From Candidatus Poribacteria bacterium (GTDB lineage Bacteria; Poribacteria; WGA-4E; WGA-3G): a stretch of 64,000 bases of DNA. Positions 18,700 through 55,758 of the stretch are shown here, in pieces. The notes under the pieces are model-generated. The model was not told where the DNA came from. It searched no databases and worked only from the letters and a program-made list of their open reading frames with translations. A program made the translations under genes and the position numbers. The stretch spans positions 3,520,001-3,584,000 of the forward strand of contig CAXXLX010000001.1 of NCBI GenBank assembly GCA_963665235.2, in the 5' to 3' direction. How positions within the stretch are numbered: position 1 is the stretch's first letter; each line of letters opens with the position of its first letter.

Positions 18700-19135
18700 T
18701 ACCATTTTTATTAATTATTCTATCATTACCGGTTGTTAGAAATGAAACAAAGAACGGAAGACCCAAACTGGAAGTTTATGCTACAATAAAGCACACAAAC
18801 TGGAAGTTTATGCTACAATAAAGCACACAAACTGGAAGTTTATGCTACAATAAAGCACACAAACTGGAAGTTTATGCTACAATAAAGCACACAAACTGGA
18901 AGTTTATGCTACAATAAAGCACACAAACTGGAAGTTTATGCTACAATAAAGCACACAAACTGGAAGTTTATGCTACAATAAAGCACACAAACTGGAAGTT
19001 TATGCTACAATAAAGCACACAAACTGGAAGTTTATGCTACAATAAAGCACACAAACTGGAAGTTTATGCTACAATAAAGCACACAAACTAAAAGTTTATG
19101 CTACAATAAAGAGACATTTTCAATTAGAAATGGTA
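18700..19135. mobile_element. MITE family 1 carrying 11 tandem 32-bp units
   Basis: Ends TACCATTT / AAATGGTA; TTA target duplication; unit CACACAAACTGGAAGTTTATGCTACAATAAAG. Confidence 0.88.
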
Positions 19136-21378: not shown

Positions 21379-21865
21379 GGGTGTGTAAAGTTTTTGTACA
21401 AGTAGGACTTACGCATTCCCCTCCGCTCCTCTACTAGCGGGATATCGGTATTAGTCCCATAGGGACGATATATTTATAGAAACTGCTGCTTCTTTACGCC
21501 CGAATGCCCGTAAATATTTTGTACTTATGTGTCAATAATGCAGAAAACACGCTAAACCTCCAATCACAAAACTTCGATTGTTACGCAGATTAAAATCCGC
21601 GTAATCCGATAAATCCGCGATAATCCGAGATTCTGACAAAAAACGCAATACCCATAATCACAAAACTTTGATTGTTACACATGGGACAATCCGCGAAATC
21701 TGTGTAATCCCCGATAATTTGTGATTTGCGGCGTACTCGCCCAAATGCGCCGTGCCTTCAGACAACATACACGCTAAATCCCCTCTTCCATTCTTCTTCT
21801 CTTCCACCCTTCCAATCTTCCATCCTTCCACCTATCCCTTGGTCCTCCAAAAACTTTACGCCCCC
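21379..21865. mobile_element. MITE family 4 (IS256-like ends), composite interior
   Basis: TIRs GGGTGTGTAAAGTTTTT / AAAAACTTTACGCCCCC; flanked by direct repeat CCTTTCCAC; related copy at 52750-53081. Confidence 0.65.
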
Positions 21866-21879
21866 CCTTTCCACGCGAT

Positions 21880-21908
21880 TTGCGAAAATCCGGTATTTCT
21901 GATAAAAT
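21880..21908 (+). promoter_or_regulatory. Putative native promoter upstream of murJ
   Basis: TTGCGA-N17-TAAAAT. Confidence 0.45.
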
Positions 21909-21970
21909 AGACAGTAGGTCAAAAGTCAGGCGGCATTATTTTCATCGTTTTTTCAACCGTTCTCTTCTAA

Positions 21971-22182
21971 TACCATTTCTAATTGGAAATGTCTCTTTAT
22001 TGTAGCATAAACTTCCAGTTTGTGCACTTTCTTGTAGCATAAACTTCCAGTTTGGGCACTTTATTGTAGCATAAACTTCCAGTTTGGGCACTTTATTGTA
22101 GCATAAACTTCCAGTTTGTGTCTTCCGTTCTCCGTTTGATTTCTAACAACCGGTAATGATAGAATAATTAATAAAAATGGTA
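21971..22182. mobile_element. MITE family 1 (inverted orientation), 4 units
   Basis: Same ends as 18700-19135 in reverse complement; TAA duplication at 21968-21970 and 22183-22185. Confidence 0.88.
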
Positions 22183-22270
22183 TAATATAGAGAGCGGGCT
22201 GTGTTCGCGCCTGGCGGTTCAAATTAGGTAAAATTAGATGGAAGAAAACGGAACGAACTCCACAAACGAA

Positions 22271-22478
22271 GTCAATAACCCCCCGCTAAAGCATGGGGGC
22301 TTGTGCGAACCGCCTGCCAAGCGGTCACTCCACAAGTTAAACCGTTGACTACAGTAATATATCGGGTATTCTTAGCGTGGCAGCTAACAAGATGTTTCAG
22401 ATGCTCCCCAAGTCTGAATCCCCTCTGAATACCTGATCTGGATGGGGAAACATATACCCGAAAGGAGAAAACAAACTT
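22271..22478 (+). ncRNA. omegaRNA scaffold of IsrB
   Basis: ~210-nt structured region between the left end and isrB; GTCAA pairs with TTGAC near 22345; ATGCTCCCCAAGTC and GATGGGGAA segments are typical of omegaRNAs. Confidence 0.75.
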
Positions 22479-23531
22479 ATGTTTGTGCCAGTCAAAACGA
22501 AAGAGGGTGAACGATTGATGCCGATGCATGCTGCACGTGCAAGGAAACTTGTCAAACGCGGTGAAGCAACGCCTTATTGGAACAACGGTGTCTATTGTGT
22601 CCGTCTCAACAAAGAACCGAGTGACCGTGAGAAACAAGACATCGTAGTCGGTGTGGATCCTGGCTCTAAGAAAGAGGGTTTCACCGTAAAATCTAAGCGT
22701 CACACGTATCTGAACGTGCAAGCCGATGCACATAGCAAAGTCGGCAAGAAGGTTGAGAAAAGACGTGAGTTGAGGCGTAGCCGCAGAGCGCGTAAATGTC
22801 CAAATCGGAAGAACCGCAAGAATAAAGGTGCTAACAAAAAGAAGATTCCCGCAGGCACGCGTGCCCGTTGGGATTGGAAACTGCGGATATTAGATTGGTT
22901 GTCTAACCTCTATCCTGTTACACACGTCTGTGTTGAGGATATTAAGGCGCGGACAAAACAGTATCAAAAGCGGTGGAATCAGGCCTTTAGTCCTTTGGAA
23001 GTGGGAAAGCATTGGTTCTATTCAGAGGTAGAAAAGCGATGGGAACTCCTAACATTACAAGGGTTTGAAACCAAAGAGATACGCGAGCGGCTTGGTCTCA
23101 ACAAGTCGTCAAAGAAGTTAGCTGAAACCTTTGAGGCACATTGCGTTGATAGCTGGTGCTTGGCCTATCACACCATTGGCGGTTTAGAGATACCCGACAA
23201 TACCGATATATTCTGTATCTCACCAATACCGATACGCAGGCGACAACTCCACAGACAAAATCCGCAGAAAGGTGGCAATCGGCCGCGATATGGTGGCACC
23301 TTATTAGGCGATGGACTTGTTAAAAGCACATTGATAAAGCACGACAAATATGGACTCACACGTCCGAGGTCCCACCGAGGACATCCTATTGCGGGTGTTA
23401 ATGCGAAAGGCCTATTCTCTGTCTATTCAAAAGATGGACAACGGTTAACAACGGGTGCGAAACGCACAGATTTTCAAGTGCTAACACGCTTGAACTTTCA
23501 ATATAGGAGCGGTGTTTCCTCCCCCGCATAA
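22479..23531 (+). CDS. isrB: IsrB RNA-guided nickase (RRXRR/PLMP + split RuvC, no HNH)
   Basis: 350 aa; RLMP; RuvC-I VGVDPGSK; Arg-rich bridge helix RRELRRSRR; RuvC-II VEDI; RuvC-III AHCVDS; no HNH insert. Confidence 0.88.
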   Translation: MFVPVKTKEGERLMPMHAARARKLVKRGEATPYWNNGVYCVRLNKEPSDREKQDIVVGVDPGSKKEGFTVKSKRHTYLNVQADAHSKVGKKVEKRRELRRSRRARKCPNRKNRKNKGANKKKIPAGTRARWDWKLRILDWLSNLYPVTHVCVEDIKARTKQYQKRWNQAFSPLEVGKHWFYSEVEKRWELLTLQGFETKEIRERLGLNKSSKKLAETFEAHCVDSWCLAYHTIGGLEIPDNTDIFCISPIPIRRRQLHRQNPQKGGNRPRYGGTLLGDGLVKSTLIKHDKYGLTRPRSHRGHPIAGVNAKGLFSVYSKDGQRLTTGAKRTDFQVLTRLNFQYRSGVSSPA

Positions 23532-25175
23532 ATGCTGGGGGTCTCCACACCGAATATTTTGATGAATCAAAGTGTGACCCGGGCAGCTGGGGTTGTAAGT
23601 CTTGCAGTGATGGGGTCACGGGTGTTAGGGCTTGCCCGAGAGGTCGCCATCCTGTATTATTTTCAGACGAAGTTCGGGGCAGCCGCCTACCATCTCGCGT
23701 TTCGCATCCCGAATTTCCTGCGCGACCTGTTCGGTGAGGGTATCTTGAGCAAGGCGTTTATTACGACATTCCTTGCGGCGGAAGCAGAAGAGGGGGAGGC
23801 GGCGGCATGGAATCTTGCAAACCGCATCTTTAATCTGATAGCCCTTATCCTAGTAGGTGTGGTGGGGCTCGGTATCGTTTTCGCACCCGCTATCGTTGAT
23901 GTCCTGGCCCGTGAGGATTTCGACGAGCAATTAAATAACGTTGAACATTACGGATTTGACAGTAAAGTTGAATTGACAATCTATTTGACGCAACTGATGT
24001 TTCCGTACCTATTCCTCGTTTCGCTTGCAGCGATAGCGATGGGATTATTGAACAGTAAAGGTAAATTCGGTATCCCCGCGTGTGCTTCCTCCTTCTTTAA
24101 TCTGTGCTCGCTTGTCGTTGGTATCAGCGGTTATTACGTCTGTCGATGGCTCGGAATTCATCCGACAACAGGAATGGCAGTAGGGGTCATTGTGGGAGGT
24201 ATTGCTCAATTTGGAATTCAGGTGCCCTCCATGTACCGAGTCGGTTTTCGGTATCGTCCACTCTTGAGCCTACGGCATCCGAGGGTACGCCAAATGCTGC
24301 AATTGCTTGGGCCTTCGGTGTTAGGTGTGGCAGCGGTGCAGGTGAATCAACTGACAAATACGTGGTTTATTACCTCAGGCGATGAATGGTTACCGTGGAT
24401 TAACAGTGCCTATCGTATAATGCACCTGCCGTTGGGTATATTTGGCGTGGCGATTTCGACGGTGGCACTGCCGCAACTTGTGAAATTCGCTACTGTGGGT
24501 GATACGGACAACTTTCGCGCCGCTTTCTCTTACGCCCTCCGTTTAATGTTAACTGTAATCCTTCCCGCATCAATTGGATTGATGGTATTGGCAGAACCGA
24601 TTTGTCGGTTGCTTTATGAGCACGGGGCATTCACGGAGGGGGATACAATTGCAGCCGCTGGTGCTCTGTTCGTTTACGCCTTCGGGTTGTGCGGTTTCGC
24701 GGCTCTCAAGCTTGTGACGGATGGATTTTATGCATATAAAGATATCCGTGCGCCAGTTATCGTCAGCATTTGTGCGGTAGTCCTCAACATCGGTTTGAAC
24801 TATCTGTTTATCTATCGCGGGCTCCTGTTCGAACATTGGGCAATTGTGCTTTCAACTGTTTTTACCGTGACGCTGAACTTTTTAGTTTTGCTCCTGCTGC
24901 TCCGACGTAAGGTTGGACGGTTGAATTTGCGACCGCTCCTTCCGATGGCATTCAAGGTTTTGATGGCTTCGATTGTGATGGGATTTATCTGCTGGATAAC
25001 AAATGGAGTCGTTGAAAAGGATTGGCTCGGCACAGAAGGTATTCTACCACGCGCCCTAGGTGTATTCACCCCCATCGGATTCGGTCTGCTGACATTGGCG
25101 GGGATGTATAAGTTCTTGAGAATCACTGAGTTTGACGATATTTTGGAAATGTTTAAGCGGCGATTTCGGAATTGA
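23532..25175 (+). CDS. murJ: Lipid II flippase MurJ (N-terminus altered by IS insertion; in-frame ATGs at 23532 and 23562)
   Basis: SRVLGLARE, AFRIPNFLRDLFGEG and LPLGIFGVAISTVALP motifs; many TM helices. Confidence 0.95.
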   Translation: MLGVSTPNILMNQSVTRAAGVVSLAVMGSRVLGLAREVAILYYFQTKFGAAAYHLAFRIPNFLRDLFGEGILSKAFITTFLAAEAEEGEAAAWNLANRIFNLIALILVGVVGLGIVFAPAIVDVLAREDFDEQLNNVEHYGFDSKVELTIYLTQLMFPYLFLVSLAAIAMGLLNSKGKFGIPACASSFFNLCSLVVGISGYYVCRWLGIHPTTGMAVGVIVGGIAQFGIQVPSMYRVGFRYRPLLSLRHPRVRQMLQLLGPSVLGVAAVQVNQLTNTWFITSGDEWLPWINSAYRIMHLPLGIFGVAISTVALPQLVKFATVGDTDNFRAAFSYALRLMLTVILPASIGLMVLAEPICRLLYEHGAFTEGDTIAAAGALFVYAFGLCGFAALKLVTDGFYAYKDIRAPVIVSICAVVLNIGLNYLFIYRGLLFEHWAIVLSTVFTVTLNFLVLLLLLRRKVGRLNLRPLLPMAFKVLMASIVMGFICWITNGVVEKDWLGTEGILPRALGVFTPIGFGLLTLAGMYKFLRITEFDDILEMFKRRFRN

Positions 25176-25605
25176 TGACCTGTTAGAGACAAGTACTAAA
25201 CTTTGGACAATTTTAGGGAGACACAATGTTCTTGTCAAACGGATAGGTGGAAGGGTGGAAGAATGGAAGGGTGGAAGCGGGGAAGCGGGTTTTGACGCGC
25301 GGCAGAGATAGGCTTAGCCTCACAATCCTCTTGCTAACTGCTAATGGTTTCCAACATTCTATAAACATTCCGCCCCGCTGGGGCTAGTTTGTGTTTTGTT
25401 TGTGTTTTCTATAAACATTCCGCCCCGCTGGGGAAACCGCACTTTGAAAAACCCATCGGCGGAAACCATTTTTCTCTTCTTTGTCCTTGTGTGAGGCACT
25501 TAGAGAAAAATCAGAGAGGCTTTGAAAGCGGGTATCCGGCTCACGGATATTGTCCAAACTATAGAAGACAAGTACAGCAGGCAGGTTTTAAAAAGAGAGG
25601 AAAAT

Positions 25606-36760: not shown

Positions 36761-38113
36761 TTACGCCTCTATATCCTCTATGGCTTGCGCTTCTAACGCT
36801 TGTGTATGGATTGAATCTAGGCGTTCGAGACTGCGCATTCTCCCGATTTTACGGGTGAGTGTATCGGGAATATCGCCAAAACGGAAGTGTAACACTTTCA
36901 GGATAGCCTCCCGCTTCGCACGAACCACACCGCGCTGTTCACCGCGCTGTTCACCGCGCTGTTCACCGATTTCTATACCTTGTTCCATCAACTCGTGTGC
37001 TATTGTGCGTTTCATTGAATTTACCTCCAAAGTAGGGGTATGTTTATCAACAAGTTCTATCAACGCTTCATGCTCCGCCGGAGGCCGGCGATACATGATA
37101 AGCGATAGAATATATTGAATTGCCTCACGTCTCTCAGCCGCCTGGTCCGCAGGAAGCGTATCCGTGTGCATTAGCATATCAACTAAGACACGACTTAGCT
37201 CCTCTGGGCTTGCGTGCTCTTTTTGCAGCACCGTAAGCAGCCAACCTATCAGATGTTCTGTCTGCGTTAGCACTTCCACCTCTGTCTCTTTGACATCCAG
37301 CTGCACCGTCTCAAACTTTGGAATAAAACGTTCCAGCTCCTTGGGGAGGTCCATGAGTGCTTCCAGGGTCAGCGGAACGTTCCAGCTCTGGTCGCCTGTG
37401 TAAAAGAGTATCGGCAGAATCGGGGACAAGCGGCGTTCACTTTTGGGAGGCTTGTCTTTCTCCCATCGTCTGATTTCTGCGTCCCATATCGATACCATGT
37501 AATACCATTCCTAATTGAAAATGTCTCTTTGTAGTAGCATAAACTTCCAGTTTGTGCTTTGTAGTAGCATAAACTTCCAGTTTGTGCTTTGTAGTAGCAT
37601 AAACTTCCAGTTTGTGCTCTTTATTGTAGCATAAACTTCCAGTTTGTGCTCTTTATTGTAGCATAAACTTCCAGTTTGTGCTTTGTAGTAGCATAAACTT
37701 TTAGTTTGGGTCTTCCGTTCTCCGTTTCATTTCTAACAACCGGTAATGATAGAATAATTAATAAAAATGGTATAAGATAGAAAACGAAATCCCATCGTCT
37801 CGTCCACCGTCGATTGGTGTTCGATATGGATATGTATTATGACTTCATCGGTTTTATCGGCTGTTTGAAAAGGCGCACGATACAAAATATCCGCTTCTCG
37901 TTCCCGTAAGTCTCTCGGAATGAAACTCGTGCTAAGCCGCTCAAGCCCGCTAAAATTGATACGGGGGGCAAGGTCAGGGACAGCAATTTCTACCAACCCC
38001 TGAACGTTTACCGGTCTTTGAAGCAACCAGCGCAGGCTTCTGTCTGAAAAGTGTGCGACCTTTCCACCGAGTAAATCATTGAGAGCGGTTGTCTCTTTCG
38101 TTTCCTCTGCCAT
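36761..38113 (-). pseudogene. Rpn family nuclease/putative transposase interrupted by a MITE
   Basis: N-half (ADILY..HIEHQS..MGFRFLSY) and C-half (MVSIW..) rejoin in frame once 37503-37772 and one TAA are removed. Confidence 0.88.
37503..37772. mobile_element. MITE family 1 (inverted), 6 units
   Basis: Family 1 ends; TAA duplication at 37500-37502 and 37773-37775. Confidence 0.9.
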
Positions 38114-53150: not shown

Positions 53151-53597
53151 TACCATTTTTATTAATTATTCTATCATTACCGGTTGTTAGAAATCAAACG
53201 GAGAACGGAAGACACAAACTAAAAGTTTATGCTACAATAAAGAGCACAAACTGGAAGTTTAGGCTACAATAAAGCACACAAACTGGAAGTTTATGCTACA
53301 ATAAAGCACACAAACTGGAAGTTTAGGCTACAATAAAGCACACAAACTGGAAGTTTAGGCTACAATAAAGCTACAATAAACACAAACTGGAAGTTTAGGC
53401 TACAATAAAGCACACAAACTGGAAGTTTATGCTACAATGGAGAACGGCACAAACTGGAAGTTTATGCTACAATAAAGCACACAAACTGGAAGTTTATGCT
53501 ACAATAAAGCACACAAACTGGAAGTTTAGGCTACAATAAAGCACACAAACTGGAAGTTTATGCTACGATAAAGAGACATTTTCAATTAAAAATGGTA
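53151..53597. mobile_element. MITE family 1, 11 units
   Basis: Family 1 ends; TTA duplication. Confidence 0.88.
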
Positions 53598-55235: not shown

Positions 55236-55758
55236 TACCATTTTTATTAACAGGACTTACGCAAATTTAGCAGAAACCTCGTAGGGGCGGGGTCCCCCCG
55301 CCCGCTAGGTCTCGCTCTAGATCCCACTATCATTAGGGTTTATCAACGCGCTGCGTAAGTCCTGATTAATTATTCTATCATTACCGGTTGTTAGAAATGA
55401 AACGGAGAACGGAAGACACAAACTAAAAGTTTATGCTACAAGAAAGTGCACAAACTGGAAGTTTATGCTACAAGAAAGTGCACAAACTGGAAGTTTATGC
55501 TACAAGAAAGTGCACAAACTGGAAGTTTATGCTACAAGAAAGTGCACAAACTGGAAGTTTATGCTACAAGAAAGTGCACAAACTGGAAGTTTATGCTACA
55601 AGAAAGTGCACAAACTAAAAGTTTATGCTACAAGAAAGTGCACAAACTGGAAGTTTATGCTACAATAAAGAGCACAAACTAAAAGTTTATGCTACAATAA
55701 AGTGCACAAACTGGAAGTTTAGGCTACAATAAAGAGACATTTTCAATTAGAAATGGTA
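55236..55758. mobile_element. MITE family 1, 10 units, with a nested family 3 MITE
   Basis: Family 1 ends; TTA duplication at 55233-55235 and 55759-55761. Confidence 0.88.
55251..55364. mobile_element. MITE family 3 (114 bp), nested
   Basis: Perfect TIRs CAGGACTTACGCA / TGCGTAAGTCCTG; 5-bp duplication ATTAA. Confidence 0.88.

Follow-up and report, generated by a model that had tools for sequence, protein, structure and literature searches.

In a Candidatus Poribacteria genome (assembly GCA_963665235.2), the cell-wall gene murJ, which encodes the lipid II flippase, is interrupted after its eleventh codon by a mobile element of 1,291 bp that carries an omegaRNA scaffold and a gene for the nuclease IsrB. 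The locus lies in a stretch of 64,000 nucleotides (contig CAXXLX010000001.1, positions 3,520,001 to 3,584,000 of the forward strand), which is called the window here and numbered from its first letter; the element occupies 22271..23561 on the + strand. From our analyses, we conclude that it is a non-autonomous ISC1 element of the IS200/IS605 superfamily, with an omegaRNA scaffold and an intact gene for an HNH-less IsrB. Comparison with orthologous genes demonstrates, at the sequence level, that it sits inside the native coding sequence of murJ and not upstream of it. The family to which it belongs sits mostly at translation start codons in this genome. We consider it probable that an IsrB element recently inserted at an N|ATGA site in murJ codons 12-13, that MurJ is still made, and that IsrB targets the empty allele. 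The kind of element and its ATGA target have already been published (PMC4810608); of greater interest is the habit of sitting at start codons.

Boundaries, target and empty allele of the murJ insertion

The first bases of the element, at 22271, are GTCAATAAC and its last bases, up to 23561, are ATTTTG, after which position 23562 opens with ATGAATCAAAGT. Insertion took place at N|ATGA directly after murJ codon 11, and the ATGA target or target-adjacent motif (TAM; 23562..23565, +) is host DNA, made up of murJ codon 12 and one further base; the site as a whole corresponds to codons 12 and 13 (ATG AAT). When the element and 150-nt flanks were compared with the genome by blastn, the alignments of other copies started at element position -3 to +2 and stopped at position 1293-1305, mostly 1295-1296, so the copies are alike for 4-5 bases into the right flank. 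The left flanks of the genome copies differ and are unrelated. The nearest copy (G000:C1:3489206-3490502) is 99.15% identical. ATGA flanks the element in the genome at 25 of 28 ends found by blastn and at 33 of 36 ends found with a regular expression, two of them re-registered. Among relatives a strict regular expression found it at 14 of 27 loci and missed several visible cases; the ends were then read directly, and the counts for relatives are lower bounds.

The 5'-GTCA terminus and the N|ATGA target match those published for ISC1-1_MA. As in other ISC1 members of the IS200/IS605 group, imperfect subterminal hairpins are present at both ends (22279-22299 and 23510-23552), terminal inverted repeats are absent, and no base is duplicated at the target, the empty joint restoring both flanks. 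An earlier reading made from the sequence alone (hereafter the sequence-only reading) had proposed the same boundaries, which agree with the genome copies and with a 22270->23562 joint in contigs of public sequencing runs. It had also pointed out the ATGA of the right flank, which fits both the NTGA TAM of DtIsrB (PMC9581776) and the N|ATGA of ISC1 (PMC4810608). Its placing of the guide 5' of 22271 is supported. Its 'left end' and 'right-end hairpin' are swapped relative to the IS200/IS605 convention, which gives the name right end to the omegaRNA side and left end to the TAM side (bioRxiv 10.1101/2023.03.14.532601).

Codons 1-11 of murJ (22238..22270, +), encoding MEENGTNSTNE, are thus separated from codons 12-548 and the stop (23562..25175, +), which are intact. 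Deletion of 22271-23561 (1,291 nt) leaves the eleven codons ATG GAA GAA AAC GGA ACG AAC TCC ACA AAC GAA at 22238-22270 in frame with MNQSVTRAAG, as had been claimed. The gene is 78% identical to its nearest orthologue and scores 361.7 bits against TIGR01695 (cut-off 235.55) over profile positions 2-505 of 506. In the 547-aa frame that opens at ATG 23532, residue 15 is the first to be matched, by profile position 2; it lies four residues past the methionine at 23562.

That the eleven codons are part of the native gene is supported by its orthologues. An in-frame ATG lies 4-14 codons upstream in all 28 evaluable loci (29 loci from 40 related genomes, one of them cut by a contig end). Members of the same family share an N-terminal tail ME[NE]ET.S... 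followed by [QNILE]NQ.VTRAAG, a register into which MEENGTNSTNE|MNQSVTRAAG fits. The tail was present in all 63 loci of species-representative genomes, a set that overlaps the first; 61 of them come from records with the title Candidatus or uncultured Poribacteria or from metagenome-assembled genomes without a title. The extension proposed in the sequence-only reading is therefore not a chance frame. At the codon aligned with Met-12, ATGA was found in 0 of the 63 orthologues, CAGA being the commonest (38/63), which indicates that the target arose in this lineage.

An empty allele exists in public sequencing runs. Among contigs placed on 21900-24100, the joint 22270->23562, which skips 1291 nt with the ends GT..TG, was found in four of four runs from three studies. 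The best such contig, 344 nt from run X5, covers 22160-22270 (111 nt) and 23562-23794 (233 nt) with one other letter. The empty allele thus has exactly the predicted joint, with ATG 23562 in place, and we conclude that the insertion is recent and polymorphic. The runs hold contigs of 48-150 kb and hence represent DNA; the joined form also occurs in X6, an RNA-library run. In X5 and X6 the depth of the joint contig equals that of the neighbouring murJ contigs. Rough figures for two other runs are a joint word depth of 2 against about 6 for the flanking murJ contigs in X1, and a joint depth of 11.6 against 19-37 in X7. Coverage gaps and depth differences between runs were used neither as evidence of absence nor of expression. 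Joint Genome Institute metagenome contigs contained no exact match to a 31-nt stretch of the left flank.

IsrB, its omegaRNA and the closest known systems

The isrB gene (22479..23531, +) is intact, encodes 350 aa and has a GGAG about 10 nt upstream of its ATG, which is kept in most rows of the copy alignment. The protein matches the Pfam family RRXRR (PF14239) at aa 3-164 (E 1.3e-28; 100.5 bits, cut-off 25). The IscB model NF040563 is covered only at 3-164 of 314, with 80.4 bits against an equivalog cut-off of 175, and no HNH family was detected in the 350-aa protein with Pfam at E 0.01. The match to DtIsrB (PDB 8DMB, chain P) extends over query aa 3-323 (E 9.2e-36). The VDPG, ED and H..D (RuvC) motifs align with 8DMB, and ERLMPMH aligns to RPLMPTT of the PLMP type. 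This conservation, which is at the level of motifs, points to an HNH-less IsrB that is predicted to act as a nickase.

The omegaRNA scaffold (22271..22474, +) was recognized by the Rfam model HEARO (RF02033), matched over positions 1-211 of 211 with 30.8 bits and E 6e-4. The score is under the gathering score of 83; Meers et al. applied a floor of 15 bits for the same reason. The match begins at 22271, which is the first base of the element, and lies directly 5' of the nuclease gene on the same strand. Double-sided changes occur in 17 of 29 predicted scaffold pairs in an alignment of 23 copies from the source genome and relatives; these leaders are kin, and the covariation supports the structure without being a formal test or proof. 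The imperfect hairpin at the omegaRNA side (22279..22299, +; CCCCCCGC-TAAA-GCATGGGGG) is the right end by convention, and its stem covaries among the copies (columns 10-28 of alignment A1). The IsrB and omegaRNA assignments of the sequence-only reading are accordingly borne out by the profile searches, the 8DMB match and the covariance model. It had further held that the element lacks a self-splicing intron, and the Rfam search (21500-24000, E up to 1, both strands) indeed returned no intron or ribozyme family, giving HEARO and one chance match to a long non-coding RNA.

The predicted guide segment of 20 nt (22251..22270, +), a length borrowed from DtIsrB (PMC9581776), is host DNA directly 5' of the scaffold. 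The same stretch precedes ATGA in the empty allele. The proposal that the guide derives from the murJ 5' coding DNA and has the empty allele as its target gains from this result, as the 20 nt lie 5' of 22271 and the predicted target allele exists in public runs. With the element in murJ, the candidate murJ promoter would also need to drive the guide, the omegaRNA and isrB. A candidate promoter region (22136..22186, +) consists of consensus matches only: a promoter-like TTGATT-18-TAGAAT at 22136-22165, found by a consensus scan, and a TATAAT at 22181-22186, seen by eye. Read from the sequence, the native murJ start now opens a frame of 36 codons (22238..22348, +) that covers the guide and 75 nt at the 5' end of the scaffold and stops with a TGA at 22346-22348; ribosomes on this frame may interfere with omegaRNA formation in the murJ case.

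The closest published element is ISC1-1_MA of Microcystis aeruginosa, whose IscB1 is an IsrB (Kapitonov, Makarova & Koonin 2016, PMC4810608). It is likewise about 1.3 kb long, non-autonomous and equipped with an HNH-less protein only, and shares the 5'-GTCA terminus, subterminal imperfect hairpins and N|ATGA target without target duplication; its empty sites are also known from genome comparison. The main text of that paper differs from the present account in that it does not mention a 'start codon' or 'initiation codon', an effect of ATGA targeting on host genes, or insertion into an essential coding sequence. DtIsrB of Desulfovirgula thermocuniculi (8DMB; Hirano et al. 2022, PMC9581776) resembles the present protein in its length of about 350 aa, its PLMP, RuvC, bridge helix and TAM-interacting parts and its lack of HNH. 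It also has an upstream omegaRNA, a 20-nt 5' guide and the TAM NTGA, with ATGA among the TAMs tested. Nicking has been demonstrated for DtIsrB and is predicted for the IsrB of the murJ element, and the omegaRNA leader is shorter here, with 208 nt from the element end to the ATG compared with the 262-nt scaffold of DtIsrB.

GstIscB of Geobacillus (bioRxiv 10.1101/2023.03.14.532601) has the TAM TTCAT, the reverse complement of ATGAA. Its scaffold is likewise derived from the transposon right end, its guide lies outside the element and the empty donor joint is targeted. With the guide outside the element, transcription must enter from outside, and the orientation of GstIscB elements is biased to the upstream gene. 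GstIscB differs in bearing HNH, and what the source reports is a bias of orientation; start codons and coding sequences are not described there as docking sites. IStrons and homing introns (PMC4227781, PMC13565253) are also mobile elements in conserved or essential genes, where only precise removal restores the gene and the element's own nuclease targets the empty allele. They splice by means of a ribozyme, whereas the murJ element has no ribozyme match and its harmlessness would need a restart of translation.

Docking at start codons in the genome and its relatives

The genome contains 31 IsrB matches, 20 of which are near full length and open, and isrB-less short derivatives of 450-650 bp. 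Docking statistics were based on the 30 insertions that have two defined ends and are flanked by ATGA. An open reading frame (ORF) of at least 100 aa begins at the TAM ATG in 19 of the 30, compared with 17.5% of 39,674 ATGA sites (p 3e-8). GGAG, GAGG or AGGA lies 4-12 nt before the left junction in 11/30, compared with 3.2%, and a start-like context was found in 15/30, compared with 5.5% (p 8e-12). In a crude gene map of 1,584 genes that start with ATGA and 5,249 intergenic ATGA sites, an equally crude model in which insertions are tolerated at these two classes of site only expects 23% of them at starts, which the observed 15-19 of 30 exceed (p 1e-3 to 3e-6). Docked copies usually lie between the Shine-Dalgarno motif and the ATG. 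The insertion in murJ is real, as the sequence-only reading had it, and belongs to a pattern that the family shows across the genome.

Full-length elements were found in the gap between Shine-Dalgarno motif and ATG of an intact leuC (G000:C1:1198240) and an intact argJ (G000:C2:342217). LeuC behind the element aligns at aa 1-465 with TIGR00170 1-466 of 466, and ArgJ at aa 4-401 with TIGR00120 1-405 of 405. TIGR02226, a double-transmembrane N-terminal domain, aligns from residue 1 of another docked ORF, and residue 10 of a docked MTHFS falls at profile position 2. Such full-length profile matches indicate that the N-termini of the docked ORFs are real. Several docked ORFs open, by eye, with signal-peptide-like or lipoprotein-like N-termini. 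Relatives give the same picture, including an IsrB element at the argJ start in another genus (locus L102 of genome G012). An ancient argJ insertion shared by the two genera was considered and rejected, as the two elements belong to different IsrB subfamilies, each nearest to copies of its own genome, and have different omegaRNA-side termini; the insertions are therefore independent.

A second verified insertion within a coding sequence is a mini copy of 477 bp without isrB (G000:C1:19462-19938), which lies in frame at an internal ATGA after codon 7 of an HD-domain, dGTPase-like gene. The tail of 7-8 residues upstream of this site is present in 5 orthologues, and the 50-aa N-terminal piece of the HD-domain protein matched no Pfam family. 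As this copy lacks isrB, coupling to isrB is impossible there.

The preference for starts can be accounted for by three properties: ATGA contains ATG, starts are transcribed in the right direction for the guide, and the host frame is left whole. We did not find start-codon docking stated in the literature located, including PMC4810608, PMC9581776, PMC13565253, PMC10734217 and bioRxiv 10.1101/2023.03.14.532601, the supplements of which may hold cases. We tentatively propose that this IsrB lineage is adapted to translation start sites. It would dock between Shine-Dalgarno motif and ATG or at an early in-frame methionine, use the host promoter for guide and omegaRNA, and re-supply initiation from its TAM-side end, partly through ribosomes that terminate on isrB 27-30 nt upstream.

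Probable expression of the interrupted murJ gene

Translation of MurJ from the occupied allele is plausible. A single transcript from the murJ promoter would comprise the 5' untranslated region, the eleven codons with the guide, the omegaRNA, isrB and murJ. MurJ could then start at the host TAM ATG (23562), which would give a protein without its 11-residue tail, or at an ATG at 23532, by reinitiation after isrB terminates in a hairpin loop. The loss would be confined to a cytoplasmic tail that is specific to the lineage and not covered by the MurJ family profile. Guided by the murJ segment, IsrB would nick the empty allele, in which the guide match is followed by ATGA, and this would favour re-copying of the element. 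A need for MurJ is suggested by the gene content of the genome: murJ is the sole MurJ-class gene above the TIGR01695 cut-off, a second MOP-family match (141 bits, below the cut-off of 235.55) contains a TAG, and no Amj match was found in the genome.

The TAM-side hairpin (23510..23552, +; CGGTGT...CCCCCGCA-TAAA-TGCTGGGGG...ACACCG) is the left end by convention and holds the isrB stop in its loop; the RNA fold of 23480-23600 has -43.8 kcal/mol and a z of -3.16. The element-borne ATG (23532..23534, +) directly follows the isrB stop TAA (23529-23531) in frame with murJ, and opens a frame of 547 aa that consists of MLGVSTPNIL and MurJ from residue 12. ATG 23562 is host codon 12 and present in the empty allele, and ATG 23532 alone is element DNA. 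The idea that the element supplies a replacement start codon could therefore apply to ATG 23532, which adjoins the isrB stop and is in frame, and not to ATG 23562. The TAAATG form occurs at 17 of 28 TAM-side ends in the genome. In a consensus scan for an outward promoter or terminator at this side, the only promoter-like sites were weak and lay within isrB, and nothing resembled a terminator. A core Shine-Dalgarno motif is missing from about half of the crude gene starts in the genome; with such starts common, initiation at the AU-rich element end is plausible. A split ribosome-binding site, in which folding of the element would bring the orphaned Shine-Dalgarno motif next to the ATG, was unsupported in a weak test: five mini elements were folded by minimum free energy with 30-nt flanks, and in all five the first 70 nt were unpaired with the last 70. 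A gene caller that takes the longest frame would give MurJ the false N-terminus MLGVSTPNIL from the transposon end (23532-25175).

Several observations weigh against continued MurJ production or against the wider interpretation. No Shine-Dalgarno-like motif was read within 12 nt of ATG 23532 or ATG 23562, and the TAM ATG lies at the edge of a predicted helix in the RNA fold. Of the 28 TAM-side ends, 11 lack the loop ATG, as do, by reading of the ends, at least 7 of the 20 copies that abut starts, so it does not account for all cases. Gene starts are also occupied by mini copies that have no isrB frame, and coupling to isrB is hence not general either. The genome is 92.6% complete, and a second flippase could be missed. 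The empty allele is present in every run placed, at full flank depth in X5 and X6, and X6, the sole RNA-library run among them, shows the joined empty form; the occupied allele could thus be a minority or transient form outside the source sample. Lastly, the TnpA-bearing relatives of the element in this genome appear to have ATAA in place of ATGA as their TAM-side flank.

The rival that survives best keeps MurJ production and narrows its mechanism. MurJ would be made specifically by termination and reinitiation at ATG 23532 (TAA-ATG) as a 547-aa chimera with ten element residues, and the TAM ATG would not serve as a start. Stop and start are adjacent, and adjacent or overlapping stop-start pairs are a classic setting of translational coupling (PMC6728339). 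The GGAG of isrB itself would moreover bring ribosomes to the hairpin and melt it. We consider this exclusive form doubtful, as the ATG is missing at the 11 of 28 TAM-side ends mentioned above and the mini element in the HD-domain gene is in frame without a frame that ends at the loop stop.

Somewhat less credible still is that the occupied murJ is a null allele, which persists beside functional empty copies, in other cells or on polyploid chromosomes, through transposition and IsrB-guided re-copying. The empty form in four of four runs, its flank-equal depth in X5 and X6 and the lack of a ribosome-binding motif before either ATG are in its favour. The insertion is also young, as judged from the 99.15% identity to the nearest copy, so an undecayed murJ proves little. 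However, the assembly has the occupied form, and the empty joint is minor in X1 (2 vs about 6, a rough figure). The element family adjoins intact leuC, argJ and 17 other ORFs of at least 100 aa. Protein divergence among the copies of one subfamily is 3-7%, suggesting that some insertions are old enough for dead genes to have decayed, and argJ was hit independently by two subfamilies in two genera with its frames intact. We therefore regard a null allele as unlikely.

An assembly artefact, in which a multi-copy repeat was misplaced in a metagenome-assembled genome, is highly improbable: there are about 20 full-length and about 10 short copies in the genome, short-read contigs break at element ends and no contig bridges the occupied junction among the matches listed (32 of >1,100), but both junctions lie exactly at canonical termini and ATGA, the flanks join in frame into native murJ, an X1 contig begins exactly at 23562 as at a branch of two alleles, and the contig of the window is 4.36 Mb long.

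With the empty allele in hand, the murJ case shows that the coding part of a normally indispensable gene can harbour an OMEGA element that has no splicing device. On the tentative reading of a lineage adapted to start sites, the element would be comparable to homing introns in essential genes without being an intron, murJ, leuC and argJ would need it for their expression, and any imprecise loss would be harmful. The docking suggests a simple rule, unseen in the literature found, by which a target that contains ATG and a guide transcribed from outside lead to a preference for start codons; this bears on the promoters of IscB and IsrB guides, on element persistence and on host cost. For annotation, the consequence is that a gene behind such an element is left without an apparent ribosome-binding site and may be called wrongly, as with the false 10-residue N-terminus that murJ would receive.

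Candidates for the mobilizing transposase are present. The genome has 13 matches to PF01797 (Y1 TnpA), 8 of them near full length and open, and three TnpA genes lie 1.3-1.6 kb from ends with the hairpin core of the IsrB elements. These genes are in elements of about 1.8-2.1 kb (G000:C1:3153209-3154827, C2:338524-340142 and C1:31454-33074), with the hairpin core CCCCCAGCTAAAGC.TGGGGG as in IsrB elements, and are the relatives with the apparent ATAA flank.

Other repeats surround the murJ locus. A 32-nt hairpin-forming unit with the consensus CTTTATTGTAGCATAAACTTCCAGTTTGGGCA is repeated in tandem shortly before the murJ promoter region (window 21995-22118) and recurs at window 18759-19047, 37587-37683, 53242-53541 and 55446-55734. 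Counted with up to 4 substitutions, 376 such units are spread over 182 loci of the genome, the largest arrays having 10, and run depth over the unit is in the thousands; it looks like a repetitive extragenic palindromic (REP)-type repeat. Low-complexity blocks rich in GGTGGAAGG flank the locus in inverted orientation (window 21781-21850 and 25240-25300). A short GC hairpin, CCGCCCCGCTGGGGC, with a T-rich stretch behind it occurs at window 25365-25390 and also beside G000:C1:3490502 and C2:343435, and is probably a small repeat family or a type of terminator.

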